Part shown: positions 17,922 through 60,652 of the stretch, one piece after another | How positions within the stretch are numbered: position 1 is the stretch's first letter | Layout of the letters: every line of letters begins with the position of its first letter | Source: Phycisphaerae bacterium | GTDB lineage: Bacteria; Planctomycetota; Phycisphaerae; SM23-33 | Direction of reading: 5' to 3' | NCBI GenBank assembly: GCA_041687095.1 | Contig: JAWLCQ010000004.1 | Coordinates: 19,194 to 83,193 of the forward strand | DNA length: 64,000 nucleotides | The notes under the pieces: model-generated | The model's database searches: none | What the model was told of the DNA's origin: nothing | The model's input: only the letters and a program-made list of their open reading frames with translations | Program-made: the position numbers and the translations under genes

Positions 17922-18914
17922 CTACCGAACGCCCTCGCCCAACAGCTCTCCCAGCACAACCGCGACATTGGCGCCGTAGAAGGCAAAGCCCGCGGTGTTG
18001 GGGTGGCAGCCGTCGATGAGCATCGCCGGGCCCGGGGGGACGAGGCGCTCGCGAGGGACCCAGGTGAGACCGCCCAGCGAGGACACGATGTCGCGGAGGT
18101 GGCGGCGGTAGTCGGCGAAGGTCTGCCCGGTGGGATTGGTGCGGGAGGGATCGGTGTCCCCGCCAGCGTACCAGAGCGGTTCGAGGACGGCGGTGGGAGC
18201 GTGCGGGTAGTAGTCGCGGAGGCGATGGAGGAAGGCTTTCGCCAGTTCGGGGGAGCTACCGCGGTTCCAGTCGTTCACCCCGTAGGCGACGGTGATCGCG
18301 TCGGGGGCGTGCGGCAGGGGCGGTTCGGGGATGCTGTCCGCGTCGAACACCGCCCCCCCGACCCCGGTGTTGTGCAGCGACAGGCCCGTGGCGCGGGCGG
18401 CGATGGCGGGGTAGCACAGCGAGGGGAACGGGGTCTCCATGCCCTGCGTGATCGAGTCGCCCATCGCCAGGTACGTGCCCGTGCGCGGGCGCGGGCGGCA
18501 GGCGGATCCGTCGGGCAGCGAGATCGCCAGGGAAGTGACGATCCGCATCTGCGGCAGCCACAGCTCCACGCTCCGCACGCCCTGCCCGGGCAGGACGATC
18601 ATCTCACTGACGGGCGACCCGTCGTCGCTCCCCACCGACGCCACCGCGAGCCCGTCGACGTAGCAGTCGAATCGCCCCGCCGAGCGCGAGAACTTCCCGA
18701 GCGTCGCGTCCAGGTGCAGGCGGTCGGCGTCGGTCGCGAAGGCGACGCGGACACCGGCGGGGCAGCGGGCGCGGATCCACCACCCCTCCGTCGCCGACCA
18801 GTACGCCATCGCCCCCGCCCCGAACCGCCGCAGCAGCAGCCCCCCCTCCTCGCCCTCGACCGCCAGCACGCCCTGCACGCACTCCGCCAGTTGTTCCGTC
18901 GTCAGCGTTCGCAC
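17922..18914 (-). CDS. SGNH/GDSL-family hydrolase (lipase/esterase/carbohydrate esterase-like)
   Basis: Block I GDSITQG with the catalytic Ser; block V DGCHPN (catalytic His) near the C-terminus; GVNDWN block. Confidence 0.7.
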   Translation of the reverse strand: MRTLTTEQLAECVQGVLAVEGEEGGLLLRRFGAGAMAYWSATEGWWIRARCPAGVRVAFATDADRLHLDATLGKFSRSAGRFDCYVDGLAVASVGSDDGSPVSEMIVLPGQGVRSVELWLPQMRIVTSLAISLPDGSACRPRPRTGTYLAMGDSITQGMETPFPSLCYPAIAARATGLSLHNTGVGGAVFDADSIPEPPLPHAPDAITVAYGVNDWNRGSSPELAKAFLHRLRDYYPHAPTAVLEPLWYAGGDTDPSRTNPTGQTFADYRRHLRDIVSSLGGLTWVPRERLVPPGPAMLIDGCHPNTAGFAFYGANVAVVLGELLGEGVR

Positions 18915-19032: not shown

Positions 19033-20713
19033 TCACACTGCCCGCGTGGATGGCCAGGCCAGTTCCACGCCCTGGGCGACCAGTTCCTGCTGGAACTCGT
19101 GCAACTCCTCGGGGTGCTCGCGGAGGGCGTGGGGTTCGGTGGAGTGGTTGAGGCACCAGCCCGCCAGCAGCCCCGCGGACTCGCCCACGTTCCACTCCAC
19201 CGGGTGCAGGCGGTAGCACCCGTTGGTGATGTGCGTGGTCCCGATGTTCTTGGCGGCAGGCAGGAGGTTCCGCATTCGTACCGGCAGCAGCGCCCCCAGC
19301 GGGATGCGGAACGGGAGCGAGGAGATGTCGATGTAGTTGTCGCCCCCCGTGCTCATGTGCAGGTCGATGCGGTAGCAGCCCACGCCCACGGTGTCGGCGA
19401 AGGGTTCGGCGAGGGTATCGGCGAGGGCGGTCGGGGCGTGCGGGGTGCGGTGCGGGATCGGGTTCACGCCCAGCCGCACCTGCGTCCCCACGTGCTGCTC
19501 CAGGACGCGGAAGACGGGCACGATGCGGCGGGACTCGCGGATGTAGGGGTACTTCGCCAGCCCGTCGCGCGTCCCGACGAGTTCGGGGCACAGGCACAGC
19601 CCCGGATACCCGCAGCGCCCGTCGGGGCGGGGCGCCTCCGTCTGCAGCCAGTACAGCAGGCTCAGCGAGAGCTGCCTGGCGTCGTGGAGGCTGCGGGCGG
19701 ACTCGTCGGGGGGCACGTCGATCACGCGCCCGGCGAAGTAGTCGTTCATCGGCCAGTTGACGAGCGTGACCTCGTCGGGGGCGTCGGAGGGGGCGTAGTG
19801 GTCGCGGGTGGTGATGCGGCGGTACAGCCAGCGGGCGTACTCCGCCCCCGTCGCCTCGTGCGGGAACAGGACGTTGCGGCGGGGCTCGAGCGTCCAGGGC
19901 AGAACGTCGGTGAACGAGATCAGCTCCCCGCACCACGGGGGCGTGAGCGGGGGCACGTAGCTTCGCCAGCGGTCGTACTGGGCGGGGCGATCGATGGTGT
20001 GGTCCGCCCCCTCGCGGGTGTCGTGCGCCATGGGGAAGCACCAGGTGATGGCCTGGCAGTTGGCGGGATCGGCGACGGACGGGGCGTGGGGCTCCCCGGT
20101 GTCGGACTGGGCCTCCGCACCGGTGACGTACTCCACACCCGCCAGCGGCAGCAGGTCGCCCAGTTCCGTCGCGTCGAGGACGAAGGCGGCGTCGATGGTC
20201 ACCTCGCCCCCGTCGTCGAGGGAGCGGAGCGTCACCGAGCGGACGCGGTCACCGTCGGTGTCGCACGCGATCGGCTGGTGGCGGAGCAGCACGCGCAGGC
20301 GGCCGCTCGCCCGCGGGTACGCGAGCATCTGCTCGATCACCGCCAGCGCCACGCCCGGAAGGCAGCACAGGCGGCTGACGTGCCCGCCCCCGGGGTTGAG
20401 GAAGCGGTCGGCCCTGGCGCGGGCGGTGAGCGGGAAGTGCTCGCGGTAGTACTGGCGGACCCCGTCGCGGAACGCGCGGTAGCGCTGGGTGCATCCGAAG
20501 CTCTCGATCCAGGGGTGCTCGTCGGGCGGGACGGCCTGGCTGGTGAGCTGCCCGCCCAGCCAGTCCGTCTCCTCGGTGAGGATCACCGACCGCCCCATCG
20601 CGCACGCCCCCATCGCCGCCGCCACGCCCCCCGTCCCGCCCCCGACGATCAGCACGTCGCACTGCACGACTTCGCCACCCTCCCTCTGCCCGCCGCCTGC
20701 ACCGTCCACCATC
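19033..20713 (-). CDS. FAD-dependent oxidoreductase (FAD_oxidored family with GxGxxG Rossmann N-terminus)
   Basis: CDVLIVGGGTGGVAAAMGA dinucleotide-binding motif. Start at the internal ATG (20713) with AAAGGAGG 7 nt upstream; the ORF track start is 20739. Confidence 0.75.
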
Positions 20714-20832
20714 GCACCGCCTCCTTTCCCGCCACGCACCGTAGCGGCCGCCGCATTCTAGTCCGCCCGCGGCGGACGTTCCCATCTCAAGGAAATCCCA
20801 AGACGGCCAAAACCAGAAAGGGACCAGAAGAA

Positions 20833-20875
20833 AAGCCCGTCGGGGCCGGCGGTGAAGGCGGCCCCGACGGGCGGG
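20833..20875 (-). terminator. rho-independent-type terminator downstream of the giant gene (13-bp stem gcccgtcggggcc/ggccccgacgggc)
   Basis: Perfect 13-bp GC stem with a 12-nt loop, followed on the minus strand by a T-rich tract (ttttcttctggtccctttctggtttt). About 65 bp past the giant gene stop. Confidence 0.5.
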
Positions 20876-20937: not shown

Positions 20938-23900
20938 CTAGATCAGGGCCAGCAGGTCCACGACCTCCTCGTCGGCGGTGTCGAAGAGCTTTCGCGTGCC
21001 CGCCTCGAGCGTCTCGGACATCACGTCGGCCGAGCCGGGATCCTCGTGGGCCACACCCAGCACGTGGCCCAACTCGTGGCGGAGGACCGTCAACAGATCG
21101 ATCGCCCCGGCGGCGGGGGAGGTGTCCGTGGCGGACAGCCCTCCGGCGGTCTCGGTGGTGAACTCGGCGTTGTCGAGGGGGGTCTCGTCGATGAACCAGC
21201 CATAGCCGGCGGCGTCATCGTCGAGGTAGATCACGCCTCTGTCCTCGTAGGCCAGCAGGGATCCGCCCAGGTCGGTGATAACGAACCGGACACCGGCGAG
21301 GAGTTGGGAGAGGTCGGCGTTGAGGGCAGCTTCCCAGTCGGCGATGGCGGTTTGGACGAGGTCGTCGCTCGGAGCGTCGGAGAGGGTCACCCCGGTGGGT
21401 TCGGCCGTCGTGGGGGCCGTGGCGACCTGCATCGCCGCCTGCCCAAAGACCATGTACCCCAACTGCTCGGTGGTGTGGTTGCGCTCGGAGTCGCCGATCA
21501 TGTCCTCGTTCACGGCGAGGTCGATGTCCGTGGTGGTCACCGGGGCCGGGCCGTACAGCATGGCCCAGCCGCCGTCGGCGCCGTCCATGGCGTTCTGGCT
21601 CACCGTCGCCGACGAGACCGTCGCGAACCCGCTGATGGTGTAGCTGTACGGGGGCGTGTCGCTGATGCCCTGCACAGTGTCCGCTCCGAGGGCCGCCACG
21701 TAGTCCACGCCGTTGATGGTTCCGCTGCCAGATTCGATCACGATGTACCCGATGGTCTCATCGCTGCGGGTGGTGTCGGAGTCCTCGCCCACGTGCTTGC
21801 CGGTGCGAAGCGTCGTCGAGGTGGGCGGGGTGGAGGAGCTGGTTCCGCGGCACCAGAAGACGGACCAGTCGGTGTCGTTGTAGCTCATCACCTGCCCCAG
21901 GACCACGGGGGTGGTGTAGCTGTTGGCGTAGGTCCGGGATTGGCCGTTCCAACTGCTCTTGCGGTCGGTGACGGTGGAGGTGTACTTGACGGCCTCCATC
22001 TTCACCCCGTCGTTGGCGACGGTATAGACGCCCTCCTCGACCACCATGTAGTGGACGGTGATCCCGGTGACGTCGCCGGTCTGCCCATCGGCCCGGTCGA
22101 CGCGGACCTGGAAGCTGTTGCCCGAGGCGTTCTGCACGCGGGCGGCGATGGGAGGCAGCGTGCCGTTGTGCACCACCGTGCAGACCACGACCATCGAGTT
22201 GTAGTCGTTGGCGAGGTTCACGGTGGTCCAGCCGGTGTTGCTCACGGTGGTGACGACGCCCTCGAGGAGCTTCGGCCCGGCGGGGTCGTCGTCGGCGATC
22301 GTCACCGTATCACTGGACGGGGTGCCGATGGTGTAGGCGGCGTCGGTGGAGAGCGTGAGCACCACCGTCTCGTCGCCCTCGTGATCGGCGTCGTCGACGG
22401 GGGTGACGGTGATGACGGCCGAGCTGTTCCCATCGGCGATGACCACACTGCCGGTGAGGGTGGCGTAGTCGCTCGTGTTCGTGGCCGTCCCGCCGATCGA
22501 GTAGTACACGGTCAGGTCGCCGCTGGTCTGGTCCCGCGTGACGGTGAACTGCCCGGTCTCGGAGGACTCCTCGGCGGCGGAGGCGTCGGTGGCGGTCAGG
22601 GTGACGGTGGGGGTGTCCGACACGGTCCAGACGACCTGGGCGTGGCCCTGCTGGGGGTCGTACGTCTGGGTGCGGGGGGCGTCGAGGTAGATGGTCCCGT
22701 TGAGGGTCGCCTGGCTCTTGGCCTGGTTGATGGTGAGGGTGTACCCATTGAGGGCCAACTGCGTTCCGCCGGCCATGTCGAGGGCGCCGATCTCCTGGTT
22801 GCCCGTGAGCTTGACGATGCCCTTCTGCCGCAGCAGCAGTTCGGAGCCCGACAGGTCCTCGCTCGTCAGGACCGTCGCCTGGTCGTCGACGGTGTCCCCG
22901 TTGCGGTCGAAGCTGTCGATGATGACCTGGCCCTCGCCGCTCGCCTGGTCGCCCGTCTGCAGGTAGATCGTGCCCGCCGACGCATGGGCGCTGCTGGCCC
23001 CGCCGGTCCCGGGCTGGGCGTTGAAGCTCCCGGTGTACCCCGAGAACGTGTTGCCGGTCCCGGTGAGGACGACGGCGATCCGCCCGCCGCCGCCGTCGCC
23101 CGTGTTCGACCCGCCGGTGGAGTCCCCGCCCTTGGCGGCGACGCTGCCGGACCCGCTGATCGACGCGGTGGACAGGTACACGCTCCCGCCCGCTCCCGCC
23201 CGGGTGTAGGTCTGCAGCGGGGCGTTCACGTTGGCGAGGATGCTGCCGTTGATGGTGGAGCTGCCGGCGACGGTGAGGTAGACGGACCCGCCGCCCTCAT
23301 GCTGCCAGTCGCTCGTGCTGCCCCCGCCCATCCCGTGCAGCGTGGGGGCGAAGATCGAGTCGTAGACCGGCCCGCCGGTCCAGCTCGATCCCGTCCCGCC
23401 GAGCCCCCCGTGCGACGCCCCGCCGTTGTAGTTGGGGTAACCCGGGCGGTAGCCCTTGCTCGTCACGTCGATCGCCCCGCCCGACCCGATCGTCAGGTTC
23501 CCGCCCACGTCCACGCGGAGGCGGTACTGGTCGGGGTTGGCCTCGCTGTAGCCCTTGCCGTTAAGCTCCTGCGTCCACGTCCCCCCGCTGATCTCCAGGT
23601 CGCCCGTGATGCTCATGACCGTGAACGTGGCGGAGTAGGCGGAGTAGGTGGTCGGAATCGTCACGGTCCCCGTGTACCCGGACGCCTGCGCCCAGTCGCT
23701 CACGGTGTACGTCACGTCCCAGTACAGGTCCTTGGTGCTCGTGGCGTCCAGGGCGATGTCCACCCCGTTGGCGAGGGCGTCCCCGGCCCAGTTGTAGGGG
23801 TTGGAGGCGAGGGTGTCGTCGCCCTGACCGACCCACCAGGCGGTCCCGGCGGGAACGTCGTTGTCTTCGATAACGACCGTCGCCTCGCTGTTGGCCCCGA

Positions 23901-26900
23901 TCGTGTACCCCGTCCCGCTCGCCAGCGTCAACGTCAGCGGCTCGTCGGTCTCCTTCACCGAGTCGTTGACCGGGGTGATGGTGATCGTCGTGCTGCCCTG
24001 GCCGTTGGGAATCACCACGCTGCCGGTGAGCGTCTGGCTGTAGTCCCCGCTGTCCGCCAGGCCGCTCACGGTGTAGTTGACCGTCAGGTCCCCGCTCGTG
24101 CCCGTGCGGGTGATCGTGAAGACGCCGTCGTCCGGGCCCGTTTCCGATGCGAAGGCGTCGGTGGCGGTGAGGTTCACCTCGACGGCCCCGTCGTTGTCGG
24201 CGATGTCCACGGTGGCGTGATCGGGCGAGCCCACCGTGTACCCGCTGCCGGAGGCGACCGTCAGCAGCACGGTCTCGTCGGCCTCGGTCTCGGCGTCGTC
24301 CACGGGGGTGACGGTGATCGTGGCGCTGGCCTGCCCGTCCGGAATCACCACGCTGCCCGAGAGCGTCGCGTAGTCCGTCGTGTTCGTCGCCGTCCCGCCG
24401 ATGGTGTAGTTCACCGTCAGGTCCCCGCTCGTCAGAGCCGGGCCGCTCCCGCTCCGCGTCACCGTGAACGTCCCGGTGTCCGGGCCGGTCTCGGAGGCGC
24501 TGGAGTCGGTCGCGACGATGGAGACGGAGGGCACGTCGTCGCTGACGATCGTGACCGTGTCGCTCGCCGGGGAACCGATGCTGTACCCGCCCGAGGCGAG
24601 GGTGAGCACCACGGTCTCGTCGGCCTCGATGTCGCTGTCATCCACGGGCGTGACGGTGATCGTCGCCGAGGTCTGCCCATCGGGGATTACCACGCTGCCC
24701 GAGAGCGTCGCGTAGTCGCTCGTGTTGGTGGCCGTCCCGGCGATGGTGTAGTTCACCGTCAGGTCCCCGCTCGTCAGGGCGGGGCCGCTCCCGCTGCGGG
24801 TCACGGTGAACGTCCCGGTCGTCTGGCCGGCCTCGGTGGCCGTCGCGTCCGTCGCGGTGATCGCCACCGTCGGCACGTCGTCGCTGACGATCGTCACCGT
24901 GTCGCTCGCCGGGGAGCCGATGCTGTACCCGCCCGAGGCGAGGGTGAGCAGCACGGTCTCGTCGGCCTCGATGTCGCTGTCGTCCACGGGCGTGATCGTG
25001 ATGACCGCATTCGCCTGACCGTCCGGGATGGTCACGCTGCCCGACAGCGTCGAGTAGTCGGTCGTATTCGTGGCCGTCCCGGCGATCGTGTAGTTCACCG
25101 TCAGGTCCCCACTCGTCAGGGCGGGGCCGCTCCCGCTGCGGGTCACGGTGAACGTCCCGGTCGTCTGGCCGGCCTCGGTGGCCGTCGCGTCGGTGGCGGT
25201 GATCGTCACCGTCGGCACGTCGTCGCTGACGATCGTCACCGTGTCGCTCGCCGGGGAGCCGATGCTGTACCCGCCCGAGGCGAGGGTGAGCAGCACGGTC
25301 TCGTCGGCCTCGATGTCGCTGTCATCCACGGGCGTGACGGTGATCGTCGCCGAGGTCTGCCCATCGGGGATCACCACGCTGCCCGACAGCGTCGCGTAGT
25401 CGCTCGTGTTGGTGGCCGTCCCGGCGATCGTGTAGTTCACCGTCAGGTCGCCCTGGGTGGCGGTGCGGGTCACGGTGAACGTCCCGGTGGTCGGTCCGGC
25501 CTCGGTGGCGGAGGCATCCGTCGCCGTCAGCGTCACCGTGTCCAGGTCGTCGCTGACGATTGTCACCGTGCCTCCCGCGGGAGACCCGACGTTGTACGCC
25601 GCATCGGCCGACAGGGTGAGGACGAGGGTCTCGTCGGGCTCGATGGCCGAGTCGTCGACGGGGGTGATGGTGATCGTCGCCGACGCCTGCCCGTCGGGGA
25701 TGGTGATGGTCCCGCTGAGGGTCTCGCTGTAGTCCCCGCTGCTCGCCGTCCCCCCGACCGTGTAGCGGACCACCAGGTCCCCGCTGGTCGGCCCGGTGCG
25801 GGTCACGGTGAAGGTGCCCGTGGTGGGCCCGGCCTCGGTGGCGATGGGGTCGGTGGCCTCGATCGTGACGGTGGGCCGCAGGACGCGGGTGAAGACGATC
25901 TGCGAGCTTCCGACCTGCGGGTCGTAGGTCTGGGTCTTGGCGGCGTCGAGGTAGATGGTGCCGCTGAAGACCGCCTCCTCGGGGGCGGAGTTGATCGTGA
26001 GGGTGTACCCGCCCAGCAGCAGGTTCGTGCCGCTCGCCATGTCCAACCCGCCGATCACGGTATTGCCCATGAGCTTCCACAGGCCCTGCTGCCGCATGGT
26101 GACCTGGACCTTGCTCATGTCCTCCGCGAGGAACTGGTAGGCGTAGTCGTCCACGGTATCGCCGTAGCGGTTGGCGAAATCGATGACCAGTTCGCCCTGC
26201 CGCGGCCCCTCGGACCCGGCCTGCTTGTAGACCGAGCCCGCGGCCGCCTTGGCGCTGAACCCCCCGCCCGTGCCCGCCTTGGCGGACAGGGTCCCGGTGA
26301 AGTTGGCGAAGGTGCTCGCCGAGCCGGTGAGGATGACGGCGAGGCGTCCGCCGCCGCCGTTATTGGTGTTGGACCCGCCGAGGGAGTTCCCCCCCGCGGT
26401 TTCGATGGCGCCCGAACCGGAGAGGCTGCCGGTCTCGAGGTACACGCTGCCGCCCGCGGCCGCCCGCGAGTACGTCGCCGTCGGGGCGTCCACGTTCGCC
26501 AGGATGCTCCCGTTGATTGTGCTGGTTCCGTTGACGACGAGGAAGACCGAGCCGCCCCCCGAGAAGTTCGTCGCGCTGACCGACCCCCCGCCCGTGCCGT
26601 GGTAGAGCGGCATGAACGGATCGTCGTAGGGCGTGGCGGGGTAGCTGCTCCGCCCGCCGTGCGTCCCCCCGCCGTTGTAGTTCGGCTTGCCCTCGACGTA
26701 GCCCTTGCTCGTCACGTCGATGGACACCCCACTCGCCACCGTGAGGTTCCCGTACACCATGGCGTTGAGGCGGTACTCGTCGCGGCCGGACTCGCTGTAG
26801 CCCTTGGTGTTGGCGATATGCGTCCACTTGCCGCCCTGGAGATCCACGTTGCCCGAGACGTAGAACGTCGTGAACGTGGAGGAGAAGGTCGAGTACGTCG

Positions 26901-29900
26901 TGCCGATCGTGACCGTCCCGGTGTAGGCGGAGGTCTGGGTCCAGTCGTCGATGTTGTAGGTGACGTCCCAGACCAGGTCGGCGGTGCTGGTTCCGTCGAG
27001 CAGCACGTCCACCCCGTGGTCCAGGGCGCCCGACCAGTTGTTCGGGTTGCTCGCCAGCCCGTCGCCCCCGCCGTTGGTCCACGTGACCGTCGCGGCGGAG
27101 AAGTCGTCGTCGAGGATCCGCCCCGTGGCGCTGTTGGGGGCGCCCAGCGTGTAGGTGGGGCTGGTTGTGAGGGTCAGCTTGAGCTGCTCGTGCCCCTCGC
27201 GGGCCCCGTCGTTCACGGGGGTGACGACGATGTCAGCGTACAGTTCCCCGTCAGGGATGGTGATCGTCCCGCCCAGAGTCTCGCTGTAGTCGCCCGCGCT
27301 CGCGTTGCCGCTCACCCCGTACATCACCACCAGGTCGCCCGACGCGATGTCGCCCGGGCCGCTGCGGCTGATGCGGAAGCTCATCGTCCCGTTGCCCGCC
27401 TCGCTGCCCGAGGCGTCGGTGGCGGTGATGGAGACGACCGGCTTGTCGTCGCTGGTGATGTTCACCACCCCGCTGTAGGGCGAGCCGATCTGGTAGGCCG
27501 CGTCGGAGGCCAACTGCACGCTCACCGACTCGCTGCCCTCGATCTCATCGTCGTCGATCGGGGTGACGGTGATGACGGCCGAGTTCTGCCCGCTGGGGAT
27601 CACCACCGATCCGGTCAGCGTAACGTAGTCGCTGCCGTTCGTCGCCGACCCCCCGATGGTGTAGTACACCGTCAGGTCCCCGCCCGTGAAGCTGCGGGTG
27701 ACGGTGAACGCCCCCGTCGCCAGGCCCGCCTCGGCGGCGGTGCTGTCCGTCGCCGACAGCGTGACGGTCGGAATCCCGTCGTTGTCCCCGATCGTCACGG
27801 TCCCGCTGATGACGGCCCCGCGGGCGTAGGCGTCGTCCTTGGCGAGCGTGAGGATCAGCGTCTCGGGGCCCTCGACCTCCTGGTCGTCCACGGGCGTGAC
27901 GGTCACGACCACGGAGGACTGCCCGTCGGGGATCACCACGCTGCCCGTCAGCGTGGGGGTGTAGTCGCCGCTGCCGGCCGTCCCGCCGACCGTGTAGTGA
28001 ACCGTCAGGTCCCCGCTGGTGCCCGTGCGCGTCACCGTGAAACTGCCGGTATCGGTCCCCTGCTCGTGGGCCGAGGTGTCGGTGGCCTCCAGGGTGACGG
28101 TGGTCCAGGTGCCCGTGAGCACCACGCTGGCGCCCTGGATCTCCAGGCGGCACCCGCTCCAGCCCGTCGTCCCGTAGTCGAGCACCACGCCCGAAAGGTC
28201 CGGGGCGGTCCCACTGAAGGTGAACAGGACGTGGTCCTCCGTCACGAAGCCCCCGTCGTCCACCAGCTTGAGCGTCCAGGTGCTGCCGCCGTAGGGCAGC
28301 GTGACCACGCCGCTGACGGAGATCGAGTCGCTCACGGTGTCGCCCAGGGAGCACTCGTAGGTCGCCCCGTTCTCCAGCGTGAGGTCCCCGGTGATGGACA
28401 TCGCCCCGGTGGCGCTTCCGGGGGCGATCGTCCCACCGCTCGCCACCGTCACGCTCCCGCTCACCGCCCCCCCGCCCGAGAGCCTCAGCCCGCTGGCGAC
28501 GGTGACGGGCCCGACGAGCGTCCCGCCCGTGTTGACCGTGACGTTCGCGTTGAGGGCGTCGGTAACGCTGGCCGTCAGCTTGCTGCCGGACTGGACCGTC
28601 ACCGGGATCCCGCCCAGGCCCCCGGTGTAGGTGACCATCATCTCGCCCGTCCGCGTCCCGTCCCCGACGATCCACTCGCTGATGGCGTTGGAGTACGCGG
28701 GGGCGGAGCTGTCGAGCACGAAGCGGCCGCGGCCCTGCCCGTCGAGGACGCGCCCGACCACCTTGTTCCCGCCCGTGAGCACGAACGTCGGGCAGTACGT
28801 GTCCAACCCGAGCAGCAGCCGCTCCTCCGACCCGTACGCGTTGCCCGCCGAGAGGAAGACCATCTCGGTGAACCCGTTGCTGCCGTCGACGTTGATCGTG
28901 CCCTGCTGCAGGCGGCGGGTCACCTCGCTGGTGCTCGTGCTGAACGCGCTGGTCTGCCGCGCGATGCCCATCCACGGCGAGCCGTTGCCGATGTTCAGCG
29001 TGAAGGCGGGATCGTTGAAGTTGTTGCCCAGGCCGAACAGCAGGTCATGGGCGGTTCCGAGGTTCTGGATGGAGCTGGTGCTGACCGTGGTGTGGCAAAC
29101 CACCGCGCCCGTGGACAGGATGGCCTCGGGCGTCGTCGGGCTCCCGCTGAAGCTGCTGACGCGGTAGACCGACCCGAGTTGCGCGCTGGACCCGCGGATC
29201 TGCCCGAACTCCGAGACCGTGAAGCGGTCGGGCGTGCTGGACCATGTGCCCACCAGGTTGATCGTCCCGTGGTCCTCGGCGGTGATCCCCGCCGTCACGC
29301 CCCCCACGGCCGTCTGGGCGCCCCACGTGTAGCTCACCAGCCCCCCGATCCCGCGGACGGTCACCGGGCCCGTGCCCAGGGCCCCGGCGACGGTGGCGTT
29401 GAGTTCGGTCACGCGGCGCTGCCCGGAGACGTGGTCGACGAGGAACCCGCCCGAGAAGTTGGGCTGGGCGGCGGAGAGATGCATCTGCGTCCCGTACGTC
29501 ATCGCCCGCAGCGTCACCAGTCCGCTGCCCTGGAGCTGGTCGGCGTCGTCGAAGACGATGTCGTCGCTGTTGGCGTAGAACGTCGCCCCGCCCTCACCGA
29601 TGGTGACCGTCCGCCCCGACGCGGGGTTGAAGTCCCCCCCGTTCGTGCCGATGCTCACCAGCACCCCGCCCCCGAGCGTGAGGTCGTTGGCGCTGTTGCC
29701 GAAGATCGTGTCCGCCCCGGCGGTGCTGTACAGGAACGTCCCGCCGCTGATGGAGATGGGACCGGTGAAGTCGCTGAGGGTGTTCCCGAAGGCGTAGGTC
29801 CCGCCCCCGAAGAAGTTCACCCCGCTCGCCGTTCCGCTCACCGGGCAGGTGATCGTGTGCGTCTTGCCCGAGCGGGCGTTGACGTTCAGCGTCCCGTTGC

Positions 29901-32900
29901 TGAGGATCAGCTTGTATGTCCCCAGGATGCTGAAGCTGTTGAGGCTGTCGATCGTCACCCACCCGACGGTCTCGTCCTGCGTGTCCAGCGTAACGCTGGC
30001 CCCGCTGGAGAAGACGGCGACGTCATTGGGCCCGGGCACCTCGCCCAGGTCCCAGTTGGTGTAGGTGGACCAACTCCCCGTCCCGCCGATCCAGTGGAAG
30101 GTGCGGGTGTCGTTGTCGGCGAGGGTGATCGTGCCCGTCTCCGGGTACGCCAGGTCGTAGTTCGCCGTATCCAGAAGGGTCAGCGTCAGGTACTCGTCGA
30201 TCTCGGGAGCGGCGTCGTCGATGGGGGTGACGTCGATGTAAACATAGCGCTCGTTGGCGGGGATGGTCACGCTGCCGGTGAGGGACTCGTAGTAGTCCCC
30301 GCTGGCGGCCGTGCCGCTGAGGGAGTAGCTCACCGTCAGCGGACTGCCCGTGGGCCCGGTGCGGTAGACCATGAACCGCCCGCCGTCCTCATTCTCCTCC
30401 GAGGCGTCGGGGTCGATGGTGATCAGGCTGACCTGCTGCGTGGCGGGCTGCTCGTAGGAGGTGAACTCCCACGCGCCCCCGACCTGGGTGAAGTTGACCT
30501 TGGCCCCCCCGGGCAGGTTCACGGTGATCGTGCCCGACCCGTAGGTGACGCTGTAGTCCGCCCCCGCCACCGGCAGGTCTCCGGTGAGGTCGTTGAGCGG
30601 GAGCATCACGGTGACCAGCGGGGTGTTGGCGTTGGCGGTGTAGTCACCGCGGACCTTGTACCACTGCACGCCCATGCGGTCGAAGTACCACGAGCCCTCG
30701 AAGTCCGTCGGCCCCGTGGCCGTCAGCGACGCCGCCGGGCCGAACGTGCGGAGCAGCATCCGCCCGTTGTTGCCCTGGATGACGGCCCCCAGGCCCCCAT
30801 CAATGGTCGAGGCCGCGAAGCCCGCCTGGTACTGGGCCGTCACCACCCCGCTGCCCGAAGCGACGATGTCGTCCAGCAGGATGAGCGCCTCGCCCTGCAG
30901 CTCCTGCTGCGTCATGACGAACACCCGGTGCGCCCGCGTGGCCGCCCCGTTGGCGTAGGCGTCCGTGGTGTCCATCACGAACCCACGGTATCCGGCGGCG
31001 GCGTTCTCGAAGCTGCTGAGGATCGTCGCCATCGGCGTGTTCGAATCCGTCACGCCATTGCCGTCGATCAACGGGATGCTGTGGACCGTCTGGTCCCCGT
31101 CGCTGGCGTTGCCCTGGAAGTAGCCCGGGTCGATGAGGTAGGCCTCCTCGTTCGCCTGGACGACGAAGCTGCCTTTGTCGTACTGCTTGTGGTGCCCGTA
31201 GCGGTGCCCCCCGATCGCCGAGACCACCATGTCCGGGTAGAAGTCCGACCCGTCGGTGCGGATCGTGACGCCCTGCGTATTGTTGTCCAGCACGACCTTC
31301 GTGGCGATGGTGGGGAAGCTCGACGGGCTCGCCGTCGCGTCCCGCCACAGGAACCCCCAGGCGACGTACGGGTCGCGGACGTCGAGGTTGTTGCGGTAGT
31401 AGCTGGAGATGAGCCCGTCGGCGTCGGCGGCGATGCGGGAGGCCATCTCGTCCGCCAGCCAGCGGTACAGCCCGTCGTTGAAGCGGGCGCCGAAGTCCGC
31501 GCAGATGGTGAAGCCCGTCAGGAACGGCTGGGTGTCCCCGAAGCTCTGCATCCCGGTGACCTTGTCGCCCGCGAGCAGGAACTCGACGTAGTCCCGCATG
31601 TTCGACAGCGACGGCGCCGTCAGCAGCCCCTGGTGCGAGCCCGTCGCCTGCTCCAGCGCCTTGGCGAAGTACAGGTAGTACCCGAACCCGTAGTCCCAGT
31701 ACAGCGAGCCCTCCGGGCACCCCCCGTCGACCATGAACCCCTTGTCGATGTAACTGTTCTCCAGCAGGTCGACCGCCCAGTTGATGGCGTAGACGCTCTC
31801 GGTGTACATGGTGTGCTTCATCACCAGGCCGGACATGCCCGCCACCCCGGCGGCGACGACGACGGTGTTGGACCCGGGGTTCCCGTACCACCCCCACGTG
31901 CCCTCGTCGTCGGTGAGCAGGTCGGAGAAGTAGCCCTCGAACCACCCCCGCTCCGTCGCCGTCAACTCGGCGGCGAGGGCGTTGTAGGCCTCGGCCATCG
32001 CGGTCACCCGGCCCACCGCCACCTGCCCCTGCTGGCTCACCCAGCCGATGGTGTTGGCGACGTAGTCGACCTCCCGCATCAGCCGGTCACGGTACTCCGG
32101 CTTGCCCGTCAGCAGATACCCATAGAGGCTCGTCACGATGACCGAGCCGTTGGAGTCGAAGCTGTTGATCAGGCCGGTGGAGAGGTGCTTCTCCGCGCGG
32201 TCGAGGATGGGCTGAACGTAGTCGGCGAAGGCGGGGTTGGCCGCCTTGGCCTTCAGCGCCGCCACCCCCGCGTCGCCGAACCACGGGCTCACGTACGTCG
32301 CGTGATACCCGAACTTCGGGGACCCGCCGAACGTGTTGCCGCCCGTGGCCGCCGCGATCGTCGCCAGCCCCACCGTCGTCCCCCCCGCCGGAACCGTGAA
32401 CGTCGCCTGCCGGGACGACACGATCGTCACGTTCGTCGCCGCCGAACCGTTGACGGAGAACGTCGTCGTCGCCTCGAACCCCGCCCCGAAGACGGTGATC
32501 GTCACCCCCCCGTTCAGATGCGCGTTATCCGGCGTGCAGCTTGACAGGTAACGCCCGTAGGCGACGCCACCGTCCAGGACCGCCGACAGCTCGTTGGGGT
32601 TCACCACCTCCAGCGAGTAGATGCCGTCCGCCGCCGCCATCGCCGGGAGCGTCACCGTGAGCTGCGTGGAACTGTTGAACGTCACGCCCGCCATCGCCGT
32701 CCCGCCGATGCGGACCTCGCAGCCGTTGACGAAGTTCGTCCCCGTCACCGTGATCTGCGAGCCGCTCCCCAGCACCGCCGGGCCGCTGTAGCCCGCAACC
32801 GTCGGCCGCAGGCCTACCGTCAGCAGGACGGTCACCTTCATCGTCTGCGACCCGTCCGTGACGGTGATCGTGCCCGTGTAGCTGCCGTTGGTGAGGCTGG

Positions 32901-35430
32901 CGGCGTCGCAGGTGAGCGTGAGCCCCTGCGGGGCGGACTGGTCGGAAAGGCTGCCGCTCGACGGGGCCACGCCGAGCCAGGCCGCGTCGTCGGTGATGCT
33001 CCAGCCCAGGTTCGCCAGCCCGGCGTTCCACAGCGGGATCTCGACCTGCGTGGACGCCCCGGCGGCGACATCGGCGACGACGACCCGCCGCGGCAACTCC
33101 ACCGTCGCCCCCGGGGCGGTGCCCGAAATGCTCGTCTGGAAGCCCGTCCAACTGTTGCCCTGCATGAACAGGCTGCCCGCCCCCGACCCGAAGTTGATCC
33201 CCACCGAGGCGGCGTACTCGCTGTCGCCCTGCTCCAGGGTGTTGTTGTACAGGATGATGTTGTCGGAGGCCGCGCTGCTGAACAGGAACCCCTTGTGGGC
33301 GCTGAGCACCTGGTTGGAGTCGTAGACGTTCAGCACGGCCTTGCCGGTCTTGAACGCGACGTCGGCGACCTTGTTGATGACGACGTTGTCGCGGAAGACG
33401 TTCAGGAGCTGCGTCTCGCCGTGCGCCATCGTCCCCCCCGACACCGAGGTCGCCCAGCGGACGTAGTCGAAGGTGTTGTTGGCGACGTACTGGCTGTAGT
33501 TGACGGCCGACTCGCTCGTCCCGCCCCCCGGGGTCCACACCACGCCCGAACGCATCTCGTGGAAGTAGTTGTTGTCGACGACGAAGTTGATCCCGCCGTA
33601 GAACGTGTTCACGCCCGAGTTGGCGACGTGAGCGGTCTGGTCGACCGCGAGCTGCGTGCCGTCAAAGTAGTTGTCGTAGACCGCGATCTTGTCGAACGTC
33701 CGAACCAGCAGCACCGTGCTGGTGGTGTCGGGGATGACGTTCCAGGGCTGGGTGACGGTGGTCGTGTACGTCCCCCCGTCGTACGACGCCACCTGCCGCA
33801 CCTGCCCCAACCCCTTCCCGCCCGTGATGACCACCCGCATGTTCGTCGCGGGGGGCGTCGCACCGGGGTTGAACGTGATGGTGTTGCTCGTGGCCCCGGT
33901 GATCGTCCCGTTGTAGAACGGGTAGCTGCCCTCCCACAGGAGCTGCTCCCCGGAGTTCTGATCCCCCCCGCCGGTGCGGACCACGAAGTCCACCGTCTCG
34001 TTGCCCCCGAAGTACTGCTGCGTCTGGCTGCCCCAATGGCAGTAGCCCACCCACGCGCGCCCCTCGCCCCAGCCGCTGGGGTGCGACGGGTTGGACATGT
34101 CGTAGTGCTGGAACGTGTTGTTCGTCACGCTCAACTGCGCGCACGCCCACGCCTCGATCAGGTCCTCGGTGTCGTAGCGGGCGTAGAAGTCACAGTTGTC
34201 GATGAACGTCTGCGATCCGAACCCGCTGACGTGCTTGCCGATCAGCGTGCTGTTGGTCAGGTAGATGTGGTTGGACCCGGTGAAGCTGATGATGCTGTAG
34301 TCCAGCCACCCCGTCTCGTGGACGCTGATGCGGTCCATCCAGACGTAGGCGCCGTTGGCGGCGATGCCCTGCTGGCCCTCGAAGGCGAGGTTCTCGATCC
34401 GCGAGTTGCCCCCGAAGGTGACCTTCGTCGCCTTCCACATCGTCGTCCCCGCCCCGTCCCCGTACGTCCGCACGCCCGAGGGGACGGTGAAGCTCGTCGG
34501 GGACAGGTACGTCCCCGCCGGGAAGTACAGTTGGTCGCCCGCCTGGCAGGCGCTGACGGCCGCCTGGATGAAGCTGCTGTCGTCCGTCACCCCGTCGCCC
34601 GTGGCCCCGTAGCTCATGACGTTGCGGATCGTGCCCGTCCAGGTGACCGGATCGCTCACGGTCAGGGCCGAGGGGCTCTTGCTCCACCCGTAGTCCCCGC
34701 CGTGCCCGTTATGCACCCAGACCTCGTACGTCCCGTTGGAGAGCCCCGCGGGGACGGTGTAGTCGACCTTGTAGGGGTTGGCGGCCGTCACCTCGGCCCA
34801 CGTGCCGCTCCCGACGGAGGGCTTGAGATAGACCCAGGCGGTGTTGGTGCCCTCGTAGGTGGCGTCATGGTAGCTGAGATTACGCCCGAAGACGCTGACG
34901 GTGTCGCCCCGGGTCCCGGCGTTGGAGCCCCACCACGCCTCGGTCTGATTGATGGCGACCGGGTAGCCCACGCCGCTGCTGTTCTGGGCCCACAGCAGGA
35001 GCATGGAGTACTCGCCCGCGTCCTCGGCGAGGCGGACGGCGGCTTGGATGTTATCGGTATCCAGGCGGAGCGTCTCGACGTCGACGAGTTCCCCGTCGAG
35101 CATGTCGCTCTGCCGCCAAGCGTAGAAACGCGTGTCCTTCCCGAAGTCGCTCCCCGTGTAGCCCGAGAGCTGCCACCCCGTCAACGCCATCACGTCCCCG
35201 CCCTCGCCCGTGCGGGTCCACTCCCCGATCTGCGGGGCCCCGGAGACCGGGGTCTGCGTGTTGACGGGCGGCAGGAACACGTCCATGCCCGCCTGCAGGG
35301 CCGGGTTGTCCGCCGGGGCAACCACCGTCTGCAGCCCCGGATACCATGCCGTCAACAGCAGCCTGGGCTCGAGGCTCTCAAGGAATAGCGGGGTCGACTG
35401 AAGCTGAGAGTAATCGGGTCGGGGGGACAT
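20938..35430 (-). CDS. giant secreted multidomain protein (~4830 aa): beta-helix lyase-like, IPT/TIG, heparinase-II/III-like, tandem Calx-beta arrays, Gly-rich modules, C-terminal metzincin-type zinc motif
   Basis: Single uninterrupted ORF (track 20938..35526). Start assigned to the internal ATG at 35430, which has AAAGGAG 7 nt upstream. Motifs are listed in the findings. The overlapping plus-strand 3832-aa ORF is Arg/Gly-rich antisense noise. Confidence 0.85.
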   Translation of the reverse strand: MSPRPDYSQLQSTPLFLESLEPRLLLTAWYPGLQTVVAPADNPALQAGMDVFLPPVNTQTPVSGAPQIGEWTRTGEGGDVMALTGWQLSGYTGSDFGKDTRFYAWRQSDMLDGELVDVETLRLDTDNIQAAVRLAEDAGEYSMLLLWAQNSSGVGYPVAINQTEAWWGSNAGTRGDTVSVFGRNLSYHDATYEGTNTAWVYLKPSVGSGTWAEVTAANPYKVDYTVPAGLSNGTYEVWVHNGHGGDYGWSKSPSALTVSDPVTWTGTIRNVMSYGATGDGVTDDSSFIQAAVSACQAGDQLYFPAGTYLSPTSFTVPSGVRTYGDGAGTTMWKATKVTFGGNSRIENLAFEGQQGIAANGAYVWMDRISVHETGWLDYSIISFTGSNHIYLTNSTLIGKHVSGFGSQTFIDNCDFYARYDTEDLIEAWACAQLSVTNNTFQHYDMSNPSHPSGWGEGRAWVGYCHWGSQTQQYFGGNETVDFVVRTGGGDQNSGEQLLWEGSYPFYNGTITGATSNTITFNPGATPPATNMRVVITGGKGLGQVRQVASYDGGTYTTTVTQPWNVIPDTTSTVLLVRTFDKIAVYDNYFDGTQLAVDQTAHVANSGVNTFYGGINFVVDNNYFHEMRSGVVWTPGGGTSESAVNYSQYVANNTFDYVRWATSVSGGTMAHGETQLLNVFRDNVVINKVADVAFKTGKAVLNVYDSNQVLSAHKGFLFSSAASDNIILYNNTLEQGDSEYAASVGINFGSGAGSLFMQGNSWTGFQTSISGTAPGATVELPRRVVVADVAAGASTQVEIPLWNAGLANLGWSITDDAAWLGVAPSSGSLSDQSAPQGLTLTCDAASLTNGSYTGTITVTDGSQTMKVTVLLTVGLRPTVAGYSGPAVLGSGSQITVTGTNFVNGCEVRIGGTAMAGVTFNSSTQLTVTLPAMAAADGIYSLEVVNPNELSAVLDGGVAYGRYLSSCTPDNAHLNGGVTITVFGAGFEATTTFSVNGSAATNVTIVSSRQATFTVPAGGTTVGLATIAAATGGNTFGGSPKFGYHATYVSPWFGDAGVAALKAKAANPAFADYVQPILDRAEKHLSTGLINSFDSNGSVIVTSLYGYLLTGKPEYRDRLMREVDYVANTIGWVSQQGQVAVGRVTAMAEAYNALAAELTATERGWFEGYFSDLLTDDEGTWGWYGNPGSNTVVVAAGVAGMSGLVMKHTMYTESVYAINWAVDLLENSYIDKGFMVDGGCPEGSLYWDYGFGYYLYFAKALEQATGSHQGLLTAPSLSNMRDYVEFLLAGDKVTGMQSFGDTQPFLTGFTICADFGARFNDGLYRWLADEMASRIAADADGLISSYYRNNLDVRDPYVAWGFLWRDATASPSSFPTIATKVVLDNNTQGVTIRTDGSDFYPDMVVSAIGGHRYGHHKQYDKGSFVVQANEEAYLIDPGYFQGNASDGDQTVHSIPLIDGNGVTDSNTPMATILSSFENAAAGYRGFVMDTTDAYANGAATRAHRVFVMTQQELQGEALILLDDIVASGSGVVTAQYQAGFAASTIDGGLGAVIQGNNGRMLLRTFGPAASLTATGPTDFEGSWYFDRMGVQWYKVRGDYTANANTPLVTVMLPLNDLTGDLPVAGADYSVTYGSGTITVNLPGGAKVNFTQVGGAWEFTSYEQPATQQVSLITIDPDASEENEDGGRFMVYRTGPTGSPLTVSYSLSGTAASGDYYESLTGSVTIPANERYVYIDVTPIDDAAPEIDEYLTLTLLDTANYDLAYPETGTITLADNDTRTFHWIGGTGSWSTYTNWDLGEVPGPNDVAVFSSGASVTLDTQDETVGWVTIDSLNSFSILGTYKLILSNGTLNVNARSGKTHTITCPVSGTASGVNFFGGGTYAFGNTLSDFTGPISISGGTFLYSTAGADTIFGNSANDLTLGGGVLVSIGTNGGDFNPASGRTVTIGEGGATFYANSDDIVFDDADQLQGSGLVTLRAMTYGTQMHLSAAQPNFSGGFLVDHVSGQRRVTELNATVAGALGTGPVTVRGIGGLVSYTWGAQTAVGGVTAGITAEDHGTINLVGTWSSTPDRFTVSEFGQIRGSSAQLGSVYRVSSFSGSPTTPEAILSTGAVVCHTTVSTSSIQNLGTAHDLLFGLGNNFNDPAFTLNIGNGSPWMGIARQTSAFSTSTSEVTRRLQQGTINVDGSNGFTEMVFLSAGNAYGSEERLLLGLDTYCPTFVLTGGNKVVGRVLDGQGRGRFVLDSSAPAYSNAISEWIVGDGTRTGEMMVTYTGGLGGIPVTVQSGSKLTASVTDALNANVTVNTGGTLVGPVTVASGLRLSGGGAVSGSVTVASGGTIAPGSATGAMSITGDLTLENGATYECSLGDTVSDSISVSGVVTLPYGGSTWTLKLVDDGGFVTEDHVLFTFSGTAPDLSGVVLDYGTTGWSGCRLEIQGASVVLTGTWTTVTLEATDTSAHEQGTDTGSFTVTRTGTSGDLTVHYTVGGTAGSGDYTPTLTGSVVIPDGQSSVVVTVTPVDDQEVEGPETLILTLAKDDAYARGAVISGTVTIGDNDGIPTVTLSATDSTAAEAGLATGAFTVTRSFTGGDLTVYYTIGGSATNGSDYVTLTGSVVIPSGQNSAVITVTPIDDDEIEGSESVSVQLASDAAYQIGSPYSGVVNITSDDKPVVSITATDASGSEAGNGTMSFRISRSGPGDIASGDLVVMYGVSGNASAGDYSETLGGTITIPDGELYADIVVTPVNDGAREGHEQLKLTLTTSPTYTLGAPNSATGRILDDDFSAATVTWTNGGGDGLASNPNNWSGALDHGVDVLLDGTSTADLVWDVTYNIDDWTQTSAYTGTVTIGTTYSTFSSTFTTFYVSGNVDLQGGKWTHIANTKGYSESGRDEYRLNAMVYGNLTVASGVSIDVTSKGYVEGKPNYNGGGTHGGRSSYPATPYDDPFMPLYHGTGGGSVSATNFSGGGSVFLVVNGTSTINGSILANVDAPTATYSRAAAGGSVYLETGSLSGSGAIETAGGNSLGGSNTNNGGGGRLAVILTGSASTFANFTGTLSAKAGTGGGFSAKAAAGSVYKQAGSEGPRQGELVIDFANRYGDTVDDYAYQFLAEDMSKVQVTMRQQGLWKLMGNTVIGGLDMASGTNLLLGGYTLTINSAPEEAVFSGTIYLDAAKTQTYDPQVGSSQIVFTRVLRPTVTIEATDPIATEAGPTTGTFTVTRTGPTSGDLVVRYTVGGTASSGDYSETLSGTITIPDGQASATITITPVDDSAIEPDETLVLTLSADAAYNVGSPAGGTVTIVSDDLDTVTLTATDASATEAGPTTGTFTVTRTATQGDLTVNYTIAGTATNTSDYATLSGSVVIPDGQTSATITVTPVDDSDIEADETVLLTLASGGYSIGSPASDTVTIVSDDVPTVTITATDATATEAGQTTGTFTVTRSGSGPALTSGDLTVNYTIAGTATNTTDYSTLSGSVTIPDGQANAVITITPVDDSDIEADETVLLTLASGGYSIGSPASDTVTIVSDDVPTVAITATDATATEAGQTTGTFTVTRSGSGPALTSGDLTVNYTIAGTATNTSDYATLSGSVVIPDGQTSATITVTPVDDSDIEADETVVLTLASGGYSIGSPASDTVTIVSDDVPSVSIVATDSSASETGPDTGTFTVTRSGSGPALTSGDLTVNYTIGGTATNTTDYATLSGSVVIPDGQASATITVTPVDDAETEADETVLLTVASGSGYTVGSPDHATVDIADNDGAVEVNLTATDAFASETGPDDGVFTITRTGTSGDLTVNYTVSGLADSGDYSQTLTGSVVIPNGQGSTTITITPVNDSVKETDEPLTLTLASGTGYTIGANSEATVVIEDNDVPAGTAWWVGQGDDTLASNPYNWAGDALANGVDIALDATSTKDLYWDVTYTVSDWAQASGYTGTVTIPTTYSAYSATFTVMSITGDLEISGGTWTQELNGKGYSEANPDQYRLRVDVGGNLTIGSGGAIDVTSKGYRPGYPNYNGGASHGGLGGTGSSWTGGPVYDSIFAPTLHGMGGGSTSDWQHEGGGSVYLTVAGSSTINGSILANVNAPLQTYTRAGAGGSVYLSTASISGSGSVAAKGGDSTGGSNTGDGGGGRIAVVLTGTGNTFSGYTGSFNAQPGTGGASSAHASAGTIYLQTGDQASGEGQVIIDSFDRNGDTVDDQATVLTSEDLSGSELLLRQKGIVKLTGNQEIGALDMAGGTQLALNGYTLTINQAKSQATLNGTIYLDAPRTQTYDPQQGHAQVVWTVSDTPTVTLTATDASAAEESSETGQFTVTRDQTSGDLTVYYSIGGTATNTSDYATLTGSVVIADGNSSAVITVTPVDDADHEGDETVVLTLSTDAAYTIGTPSSDTVTIADDDPAGPKLLEGVVTTVSNTGWTTVNLANDYNSMVVVCTVVHNGTLPPIAARVQNASGNSFQVRVDRADGQTGDVTGITVHYMVVEEGVYTVANDGVKMEAVKYTSTVTDRKSSWNGQSRTYANSYTTPVVLGQVMSYNDTDWSVFWCRGTSSSTPPTSTTLRTGKHVGEDSDTTRSDETIGYIVIESGSGTINGVDYVAALGADTVQGISDTPPYSYTISGFATVSSATVSQNAMDGADGGWAMLYGPAPVTTTDIDLAVNEDMIGDSERNHTTEQLGYMVFGQAAMQVATAPTTAEPTGVTLSDAPSDDLVQTAIADWEAALNADLSQLLAGVRFVITDLGGSLLAYEDRGVIYLDDDAAGYGWFIDETPLDNAEFTTETAGGLSATDTSPAAGAIDLLTVLRHELGHVLGVAHEDPGSADVMSETLEAGTRKLFDTADEEVVDLLALI
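24100..25500 (-). repeat. tandem ~342-bp (114-aa) coding repeats, near-identical at nucleotide level, each encoding one Calx-beta domain
   Basis: Antisense mini-ORFs at 24464, 24806 and 25148 (spacing exactly 342 bp) give almost identical peptides. The sense units read PTVTITATDATATEAGQTTGTFTVTRSGSGPALTSGDLTVNYTIAGTATNT(S/T)DY(A/S)TLSGSV(V/T)IPDGQ...DETV(L/V)LTLASGGYSIGSPASDTVTIVSDDV. Confidence 0.7.
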
Positions 35431-36030
35431 GGCGTGCTCCTTTGCCCAGGTTGGTGGGCGCGGGGAGGGGTCCCTCCGCGCACACGATAACTGCAGTTGC
35501 ATTCCCTTGGCTCGCCACACCGACAAGGGACCACGCGGACAGACCGCGCGACACCCGCCTCCGCCGGGAGGGGATACGGACGAGACTGTCCCAACCCGAA
35601 CCCGGCCGACGAACCAACCAATTGTGCTCCCGCGCCCGCTTCAGGGACGAGAGCGCCAGACAGGACAAGATCGAAGCGACAGCAAACGAACGGTGTCGGG
35701 CAGGCAATGCGCCCGACGACATGCCAGCACCCTTGAGGATAACAGCACCCCGGATAGCGTCAAGCGAGCAGCAACGAGATAATGTGCGAACGTAGAATAC
35801 TCGCGGCTGAATGTGCAGGAATAGCACCCCCGCGCACCCGGCTGCGCTTCGCTCCGCCCCCTGCATGCCCTACACACTCCGCCCGAAAAAGGGGAACAGG
35901 CTCCGCGGCTGTCTGGCGGTGCCTGCCCCCCGGCGGTTCGCCTGCATGGGCTCGAAAAGCGGGACAGGCACCTGCGCGGCGAACAGCAGCCGCCCTGGCC
36001 CCAGTGCCCATTCTCAAAACCGCTGCTCCG

Positions 36031-37368: not shown

Positions 37369-37371
37369 GGA

Positions 37372-41556: not shown

Positions 41557-41589
41557 GGTTCCACCCCTTCTCTCACGCCATCCCCGCTG

Positions 41590-41720: not shown

Positions 41721-41727
41721 CATGTCT

Positions 41728-47743: not shown

Positions 47744-47766
47744 TGGCCCGTGCCTCTCGCGGATAC

Positions 47767-60640: not shown

Positions 60641-60652
60641 TGAACGCCTCCG

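Follow-up and report, generated by a model that had tools for sequence, protein, structure and literature searches.

A single 14.5-kb gene on the minus strand of a 64,000-nucleotide (nt) stretch of Phycisphaerae bacterium DNA (the window; contig JAWLCQ010000004.1) encodes, at positions 20938-35430, a predicted protein of 4830 amino acids (aa). Profile, fold, and comparative evidence indicates that this giant protein is probably exported and tethered, and that it both binds and depolymerises polysaccharide by means of a head with two enzymes, a stalk stiffened by Ca2+, and a targeting cassette at the C-terminus. An earlier reading made from the sequence alone (the sequence-only reading) had proposed a surface or secreted protein for polysaccharide attachment and processing, and the same three kinds of evidence support that proposal; seven of its eight domain calls are backed by profiles or fold models, with PATR repeats as the exception. 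All features of the gene given below lie on the minus strand, with coordinates counted from the start of the window.

The minus-strand frame is free of stop codons over positions 20938-35526, and translation from the ATG at 35430 yields 4830 aa and a stop. A Shine-Dalgarno-like AAAGGAG (35437..35443), read from the sequence, precedes this ATG as had been described, although the spacer is 6 nt and not the 7 nt first given. In-frame alternative starts at ATG 35502 (24 additional codons) and TTG 35526 (32 additional codons) make the start codon uncertain to that extent, which leaves the remaining analysis unaffected. Because the DNA is 69% GC and the antisense frame also runs long (3832 codons without a stop), the length of the open reading frame (ORF) is by itself weak proof of a gene. 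Codon-position GC is 0.58/0.52/0.957, GC at third codon positions (GC3) lies within 0.905-0.99 in each of 24 consecutive windows of 200 codons, and the other frames hold 26 to 238 stops each, the antisense frame being the exception with 2. Profile matches in the single frame span residue 14 to residue 4814. By GC3, codon-position GC, these domain matches, and collinearity with an orthologue described below, the 4830-codon ORF is one continuous real gene, and the single uninterrupted ORF of the sequence-only reading stands, with an open frame, uniform GC3, and in-frame domains from end to end. On the plus strand, stop-free ORFs of 3366 aa (35782-45882) and 3832 aa (21046-32544) are also present, neither with a Pfam match. 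The former was considered as a gene and rejected, as it lacks a Pfam match and the minus-strand genes opposite it have GC3 values exceeding 0.9. Both ORFs are antisense shadows, in DNA of 69% GC, of genuine minus-strand genes whose GC3 exceeds 0.9; ORF length by itself misleads in this window.

The protein opens with a leader (residues 1-28; 35347..35430) that carries LFLESLEPRLLLTA at residues 15-28, an LExLExRxLL / LEPR-XLL export motif that lies within the first ~40 residues and is not accompanied by a hydrophobic Sec-type core. Both N-terminal features predicted from the sequence were recovered: the LESLEPRLLL core occupies residues 17-26, and the lack of a classical Sec signal is reflected in a maximum 11-residue hydropathy of only 1.0. 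Two hidden Markov models (HMMs) of this motif, PF07595 (Planctomycete extracellular, Planc_extracel) and NF012209 (LEPR-XLL), each score 12.7 bits on the leader, below their cut-offs of 25.5 and 17, respectively; both are short models, and the leader has no RR prefix directly before the motif. The four nearest homologues (P0001-P0004) and the orthologue (locus L080, on metagenome contig Ga0101944_10000160) carry the motif as well, as the variants LEPLEPRLLLS, LETLEPRLLLS, LEPMEPRLLLS, VEQLESRLLLS, and METLESRVVLS, and in these proteins it precedes the same mature N-terminus (..YPDLQ..PADNPALPG.D.F.PPV). Homologues from other phyla have a classical Sec signal peptide at the leader position, ending just before the same mature residues. 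Maximum 11-residue hydropathy is ~0.9-1.5 in the motif proteins and 2.35-2.85 in six of the seven signal-peptide homologues checked (P0005, P0006, P0007, P0009, P0012, and P0025), with the seventh, P0016, at 1.33. As judged from these alignments, the LExLEPRxLL leader takes exactly the place of the Sec signal peptide in the homologues.

The N-terminal motif of planctomycetal giant surface proteins is credited to Studholme et al. 2004, as cited in PMC8567305. The latter work treats RRLxxExLExRxLLA as an export signal specific to planctomycetes, reports on the proteomic fractionation of proteins that carry it, and finds the motif on 8 of the 10 longest proteins of Tuwongella (T. immobilis), which range from 4,016 to 10,566 aa and in some cases contain long Calx-beta arrays. 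Because the leader sits where a Sec signal peptide would be, has low hydropathy, and belongs to a motif class that the literature treats as an export signal, we infer that it directs export.

Following the leader, residues 29-870 constitute a conserved unit of ~850 residues with 113 homologue hits. It begins with a beta-rich region of a 'GH28-related' family (residues 29-262; 34645..35346) that has no Pfam model but is covered by about 94-111 homologues, with many near-invariant residues in the alignment. A right-handed beta-helix of the pectate-lyase-like / GH55-like type follows (PF12708; residues 263-785; 33076..34644), scoring 53.7 bits in Pfam against a cut-off of 27, and the unit closes with a BACON domain (residues 790-870; 32821..33063; BACON_2 31.6 bits, BACON 25.4 bits). 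More than 100 proteins at 29-46% identity share the unit, mostly free-standing at ~920-1040 aa, and several are labelled 'glycosyl hydrolase family 28-related'. Stand-alone PF12708 and BACON proteins of this family (P0005-P0040), which come from Verrucomicrobiota, Lentisphaerota, Bacteroidota, and Acidobacteriota and are structurally glycoside hydrolase family 55 (GH55) beta-1,3-glucanases, are collinear with residues 29-870 at 33-40% identity, with the invariant residues kept. Unlike the giant protein, they start with a Sec signal peptide, and BACON is usually either their last domain or followed by a type IX secretion system (T9SS), LamG, or PA14 domain. The PF12708 score and the collinear homologues bear out the pectate-lyase-type helix called from the sequence.

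The family profile best matches GH55 beta-1,3-glucanases (E 1.5e-33), followed by alginate epimerases (AlgE), the adhesin PfbA, the phi29 appendage, and iota-carrageenase (GH82). Because the profile matches glucanases, epimerases, an adhesin, and a carrageenase alike, the fold class predicted for residues 263-785 is certain and its chemistry is not. An acidic motif, NSGEQxLWEG, is conserved in the family alignment. Two IPT/TIG (CoaZ-repeat) Ig-like domains (residues 885-1040; 32311..32778) come next, as had been proposed, with two stretches each for TIG (51.5 bits) and NF058597 (77.7 bits).

The second enzyme-type domain of the head is a heparinase II/III-like lyase with an (alpha/alpha)6-toroid and a beta-sandwich (residues 1046-1660; 30451..32295), matched by Hepar_II_III_C at 31.0 bits on the segment (cut-off 24) and at 27.2 bits on the whole protein. 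Not one of the 113 homologue hits of the head unit carries the lyase as well. Below E 0.01, the only sequence matches in the PDB are glycosaminoglycan (GAG) lyases of polysaccharide lyase family 35 (PL35), namely 8KHW (E 3e-7), 9O3Q, and 8KHV, and two heparinase chains appear at E 0.011. In 8KHW, Tyr241, His397, and Asn187 are essential, and mutation of the Tyr and His abolishes activity (PMC12088678). With the offset of 14 between the chain index of 8KHW and the published numbering applied, Y1244 (PEGSLYWDYG) aligns with Tyr241 and H1414 (GHHKQYDKGSF) with His397; both residues are also kept in a stand-alone lyase paralogue at the L080 locus. Tyr1244 and His1414 are regarded as the putative catalytic acid-base (Bronsted) pair, and with their alignment and the 31-bit profile match the heparinase II/III or alginate-lyase-like region suggested earlier is supported. 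The uronate-neutralising Asn187 pairs with a Gly in 'YGNPGSN', within a weakly aligned stretch that has an Asn two positions to either side. Like the PL35/PL15/PL17/PL12/PL21 lyases (GAGase II, VII; 8KHV, 8KHW), the giant protein has Hepar_II_III_C and the motifs EG..YW.YG and GH..D.GSF, but its sequence similarity to PL35-type enzymes is marginal (E 3e-7), the neutraliser Asn is unaligned, and a Gln stands in place of the second His in the metal-site H-x-H. PL35-type lyases are free enzymes of ~600 aa, whereas here the lyase domain is embedded in 4830 aa.

Gene neighbourhoods of the relatives were then considered together with this fold. A sulfatase gene at 13311-13893 (plus strand) of the L080 contig overlaps the orthologue by ATGA and is translationally coupled to it, and the lyase paralogue (1-2484, minus strand), a divergent stand-alone protein with a Sec signal peptide, lies upstream of the orthologue, faces it, and is 32% identical to the lyase domain over 558 aa (E 4e-67). 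The third-closest homologue, P0004, adjoins a sulfatase and a sulfate transporter. From the lyase fold and these sulfatase neighbourhoods we infer that the target glycan is acidic and possibly sulfated.

Most of the remaining length is made up of Calx-beta domains and beta-helical modules. Calx-beta (PF03160) matches 11 stretches, for 280.6 bits in all and above the gathering cut-off, where the sequence-only reading had counted at least nine units. In the Pfam assignment they are arranged 1 + 3 + 6 + 1, as unit 1 (residues 1666-1775; 30106..30435), units 2-4 (residues 2442-2775; 27106..28107), units 5-10 (residues 3185-3860; 23851..25878), and unit 11 (residues 4273-4384; 22279..22614). The block of six includes a tandem array identified by Tandem Repeats Finder (24247-25701; period 342 nt, 4.3 copies, 85% matches) that corresponds to four to five Calx-beta units. 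Weak Pfam matches to DUF4843, NMD3_OB, and Grp7_allergen within the arrays were dismissed, as they overlap Calx-beta.

Between the first and second Calx-beta blocks lies region F (residues 1777-2440; 28111..30102), a series of Gly/Thr/Ser-rich beta-strand repeats that is presumed to be a beta-helix. Pfam and PDB sequence searches gave no usable match to it, nor did the profile of the module described next, and residues ~2300-2390 match the NCBIfam EprS autotransporter passenger segment (E 4.3e-10). The PATR/autotransporter-like repeats read from the sequence did not hold up beyond this local match: PF12951 (PATR) has no match in the giant protein at E up to 1, and profile searches of it found no C-terminal translocator barrel.

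The two diverged copies of a Gly-rich beta-helix-like module that had been recognised in the sequence were confirmed as H (residues 2782-3184; 25879..27087) and J (residues 3864-4272; 22615..23841; 454 bits with the module profile in hmmsearch), which are 56% identical to each other. An AlphaFold2 model of the module is a beta-helix resembling the tapirin-like, EtpA, HMW1, and HxuA adhesins. The family has no Pfam or NCBIfam model, yet comprises 11,652 cluster representatives (members include P0248-P0397), with up to 12 copies per protein and proteins of up to ~7,000 aa. In many of its short members the C-terminus is a conserved 'P.GT + hydrophobic' tail. In the giant protein, the Calx-beta arrays and beta-helices may together make up a spacer that is stiffened by Ca2+ and on the order of 100 nm long.

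A stalk of this kind would also serve a purely structural adhesin or fibre, in which the enzyme-like folds are catalytically dead and only bind glycan, so that the role of the protein would be to attach (to a holdfast, biofilm, or particle) and not to degrade. The 11 Calx-beta domains and the lectin-like domain near the C-terminus suit an adhesin, modules H and J most closely resemble adhesins, and a published study of giant genes in planctomycetes indicates roles in adhesion and carbohydrate binding (PMC5177795). Although the beta-helix profile matches PfbA about as well as it matches enzymes, the acidic motif of the family is invariant across phyla, and most of its members are, as enzymes would be, stand-alone proteins that have a signal peptide and measure ~920-1040 aa. 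Likewise, the neutraliser Asn of the lyase is unaligned, but both Bronsted residues, Tyr1244 and His1414, are kept, and the orthologue is neighboured by sulfatase and lyase genes. We consider a protein that only attaches to be unlikely, if still a credible alternative to one that also depolymerises its ligand.

Comparison with the orthologue also bears on how the C-terminal third arose. The L080 gene (2638-13314, plus strand) matches in one 9.5-kb high-scoring segment pair at 74% nucleotide identity, and its product is 71% identical to and collinear with residues 17-3188. It is kept through module H and then runs into a tail of 290 residues that contains a type I dockerin (34.7 bits). Because collinearity extends to residue 3188 and the orthologue then ends in a dockerin, the remainder of the giant protein, six Calx-beta units followed by J, Calx-beta, K, and L, reads at the sequence level as a C-terminal cassette that was swapped in or added, with the join falling exactly on a domain boundary. 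A partial assembly artefact, in which residues 3189-4830 were joined through similar Calx-beta repeats or the repeat number is wrong, would also place a break here, as collinearity is lost precisely where H gives way to the next Calx-beta unit; a break at a domain boundary is, however, what natural domain shuffling predicts. The Calx-beta units do repeat at a 342-nt period with 82-85% identity, but at an identity of 85% or less, long exact repeats are few. The collections searched gave no match to an identical protein or contig, whereas GC3 and codon-position composition are uniform across the junction, and J is a diverged paralogue of H (56%), which fits an old internal duplication over a join between loci. 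We therefore view a misassembly as very unlikely.

The cassette ends in two further domains. The K domain (residues 4385-4663; 21442..22278) is predicted to contain three H-type-lectin-like beta-sandwich repeats in one chain; it has no Pfam model, and Foldseek against the PDB returned no solved structure resembling the whole domain. Its model is confident and has lectin fold matches, in keeping with the lectin-like beta-sandwich called from the sequence. This 278-residue domain was detected at no fewer than 519 genome loci across many phyla (e.g., L001-L078), is 47-64% identical across distant phyla, and often occurs in tandem or at the very C-terminus.

The last domain, L (residues 4690-4830; 20941..21363), is a candidate mini-metzincin with an intact HELGHVLGVAH at residues 4785-4795 and a Met-turn candidate, VMSETL. 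Its model is confident and has matrix metalloprotease (MMP) fold matches, and the Matrixin profile matches marginally, at 26.0 bits for the C-terminus taken alone and 20.8 bits for the full-length protein; the C-terminal zinc-peptidase motif of the sequence-only reading is consistent with all of these. The zinc motif HExxHxxGxxH is kept in 10 of 10 K+L homologues, and the following Met in most. Compared with matrixin (M10) and the minimal metzincins (MMP catalytic domain, snapalysin, and selecase), the domain is only ~140 residues long and, unlike them, always follows K in its homologues; no pro-domain cysteine switch was identified in the region.

Variation at this end of the protein might also be expected of a polymorphic effector, the alternative that the sequence-only reading had raised, with the lectin and metzincin forming a delivered toxin exchanged between strains. 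The C-termini of the two orthologues do differ (a dockerin tail in L080, Calx-J-Calx-K-L here), but the alternative end in L080 is a docking module and not a toxin; the K+L pair is found behind varied N-terminal architectures, but K is common in secreted proteins, many of which carry it simply as a C-terminal or tandem domain. Profile searches of the giant protein revealed no known toxin, pre-toxin, RHS, or HINT module, and no small immunity-like gene lies downstream, where the next gene, after a 200-nt gap, encodes an FAD oxidoreductase. An effector function is accordingly judged highly improbable. Because the orthologue has a dockerin in the same position, and dockerins are docking modules, the C-terminal cassette may instead be a tethering or targeting end. 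In a more specific form of this idea, which we regard as doubtful, the K+L pair would be an uncharacterised tether-and-release module doing the job of the dockerin of the orthologue, with the lectin holding a surface glycan and the protease freeing or processing the protein. If true, K alone would represent a 'choice-of-anchor'-like domain that no current model covers and that is widespread among the secreted proteins of many phyla.

Taken together, the tethered, polysaccharide-depolymerising protein that we favour would operate as follows. The leader would export it to the outside of the cell. There the catalytic head, consisting of the beta-helix unit, the TIG pair, and the lyase with its putative Tyr/His pair, would cut an acidic, probably uronic-acid-containing and possibly sulfated polysaccharide. 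The 11 Calx-beta domains, interleaved with three beta-helical adhesin-like modules, would act as a Ca2+-stiffened spacer, and the C-terminal cassette as the tethering or targeting end, where the lectin-like K domain may bind glycan on the cell or on the substrate and the metzincin may trim the protein, set it free, or act on the proteinaceous part of the matrix. Several points weigh against this reading. Both leader HMMs fall below cut-off; the beta-helix profile also matches a non-enzymatic adhesin, PfbA; the uronate-neutralising Asn of the lyase pairs with Gly in a poorly aligned stretch, and identity to any characterised lyase is too low for PL family assignment; the Matrixin match is marginal; and the independent assembly support given by L080 ends at residue 3188, so that the C-terminal third lies outside it.

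Planctomycetes are rich in giant genes predicted to function in adhesion and carbohydrate binding (PMC5177795), and motif-bearing giant proteins with Calx-beta domains are a described planctomycete class (PMC8567305, PMC5177795); to call the combination of domains unusual, as had been done, was an overstatement. The nearest homologues (P0001, P0002, P0004, and L080) are similar mosaics. P0001, P0002, and P0004 combine Pect-lyase with Calx-beta, TIG, PATR, and LamG, and P0155 has Calx-like repeats before K+L, while the exact domain order is found only in L080, a partial orthologue. The architecture is elaborate but recognisable, each pairwise domain combination recurring, and is not an anomaly. 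With planctomycetal giant surface proteins (PF07595; PMC8567305, PMC5177795) the protein shares LExLEPRLLL instead of a hydrophobic signal, a length above 4000 aa, Calx-beta arrays, and a planctomycete-like genome context (a kinase-FGE fusion, sulfatases, and a BatA operon). The GC content, like the leader motif, the fusion, and the sulfatases, is in line with Planctomycetota. It differs from them in having no RR directly before the motif, in scoring below the cut-off of both HMMs, and in a head made of two catalytic-type carbohydrate-active enzyme domains. A long extender array of Ca-binding Ig-like repeats is shared with Ca2+-dependent giant repeat adhesins, but no RTX or type I secretion system signal, LPXTG, PEP-CTERM, or T9SS C-terminal domain was found in the giant protein. 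Relative to cellulosome-style dockerin-tethered enzymes, the L080 orthologue ends in a type I dockerin, the cellulosomal tethering module, whereas the window's protein has a lectin-like domain and a metzincin at that position.

Downstream of the giant gene, and on the same strand as had been stated, are an FAD_oxidored gene (19033-20739) and a GDSL gene (17922-18914). They are separated from it by a gap of ~200 nt with a terminator-like hairpin (20834..20847, minus strand), which a consensus scan placed ~90 nt past the stop codon at 20938-20940. Because this gap and hairpin intervene and the orthologue has a sulfatase as its neighbour instead, the link to these genes is weak, and an operon joining them with the giant gene was not adopted.

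Elsewhere in the window, a second large beta-helix protein of 1089 aa (Beta_helix, NosD) is encoded ~10 kb downstream of the giant gene (7930-11199, minus strand). A sulfatase gene (485 aa) adjoining a sodium:solute symporter gene (58948-62110, minus strand) is the best match in the window to the L080-coupled sulfatase (tblastx 49%), and a Ser/Thr protein kinase of 1182 aa is fused to a C-terminal FGE-sulfatase (sulfatase-modifying-factor-like) domain (11892-15437, plus strand). Upstream of the giant gene lies a MoxR / DUF58 / BatA-VWA operon (44562-49075, minus strand), followed by three large contiguous genes (445, 1435, and 945 aa; 36031-44565, minus strand) without a Pfam match. Also present are a 1519-aa protein with a BlaR1-type M56 peptidase domain, unusually long for its family (50279-54838, minus strand), and tandem thiamine-pyrophosphate enzyme paralogues (acetolactate-synthase-like; 48-1847 and 1961-3718, plus strand) with near-identical Pfam scores.

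Giant surface proteins of Planctomycetes are poorly understood, and the one described here is a well-dissected addition to them. The long-proposed export signal specific to planctomycetes could be tested cleanly in this orthologous family, in which the LExLEPRxLL leader exactly replaces a Sec signal peptide. Two large domain families, the H/J beta-helix and K, are missed by current Pfam and NCBIfam models and are targets for domain curation and structural work, and the head domains could prove to have lyase or hydrolase activities of new specificity towards sulfated polysaccharides of marine or soil origin. Overall, these results suggest that some planctomycete giant proteins are tethered glycan-degrading machines rather than pure adhesins.

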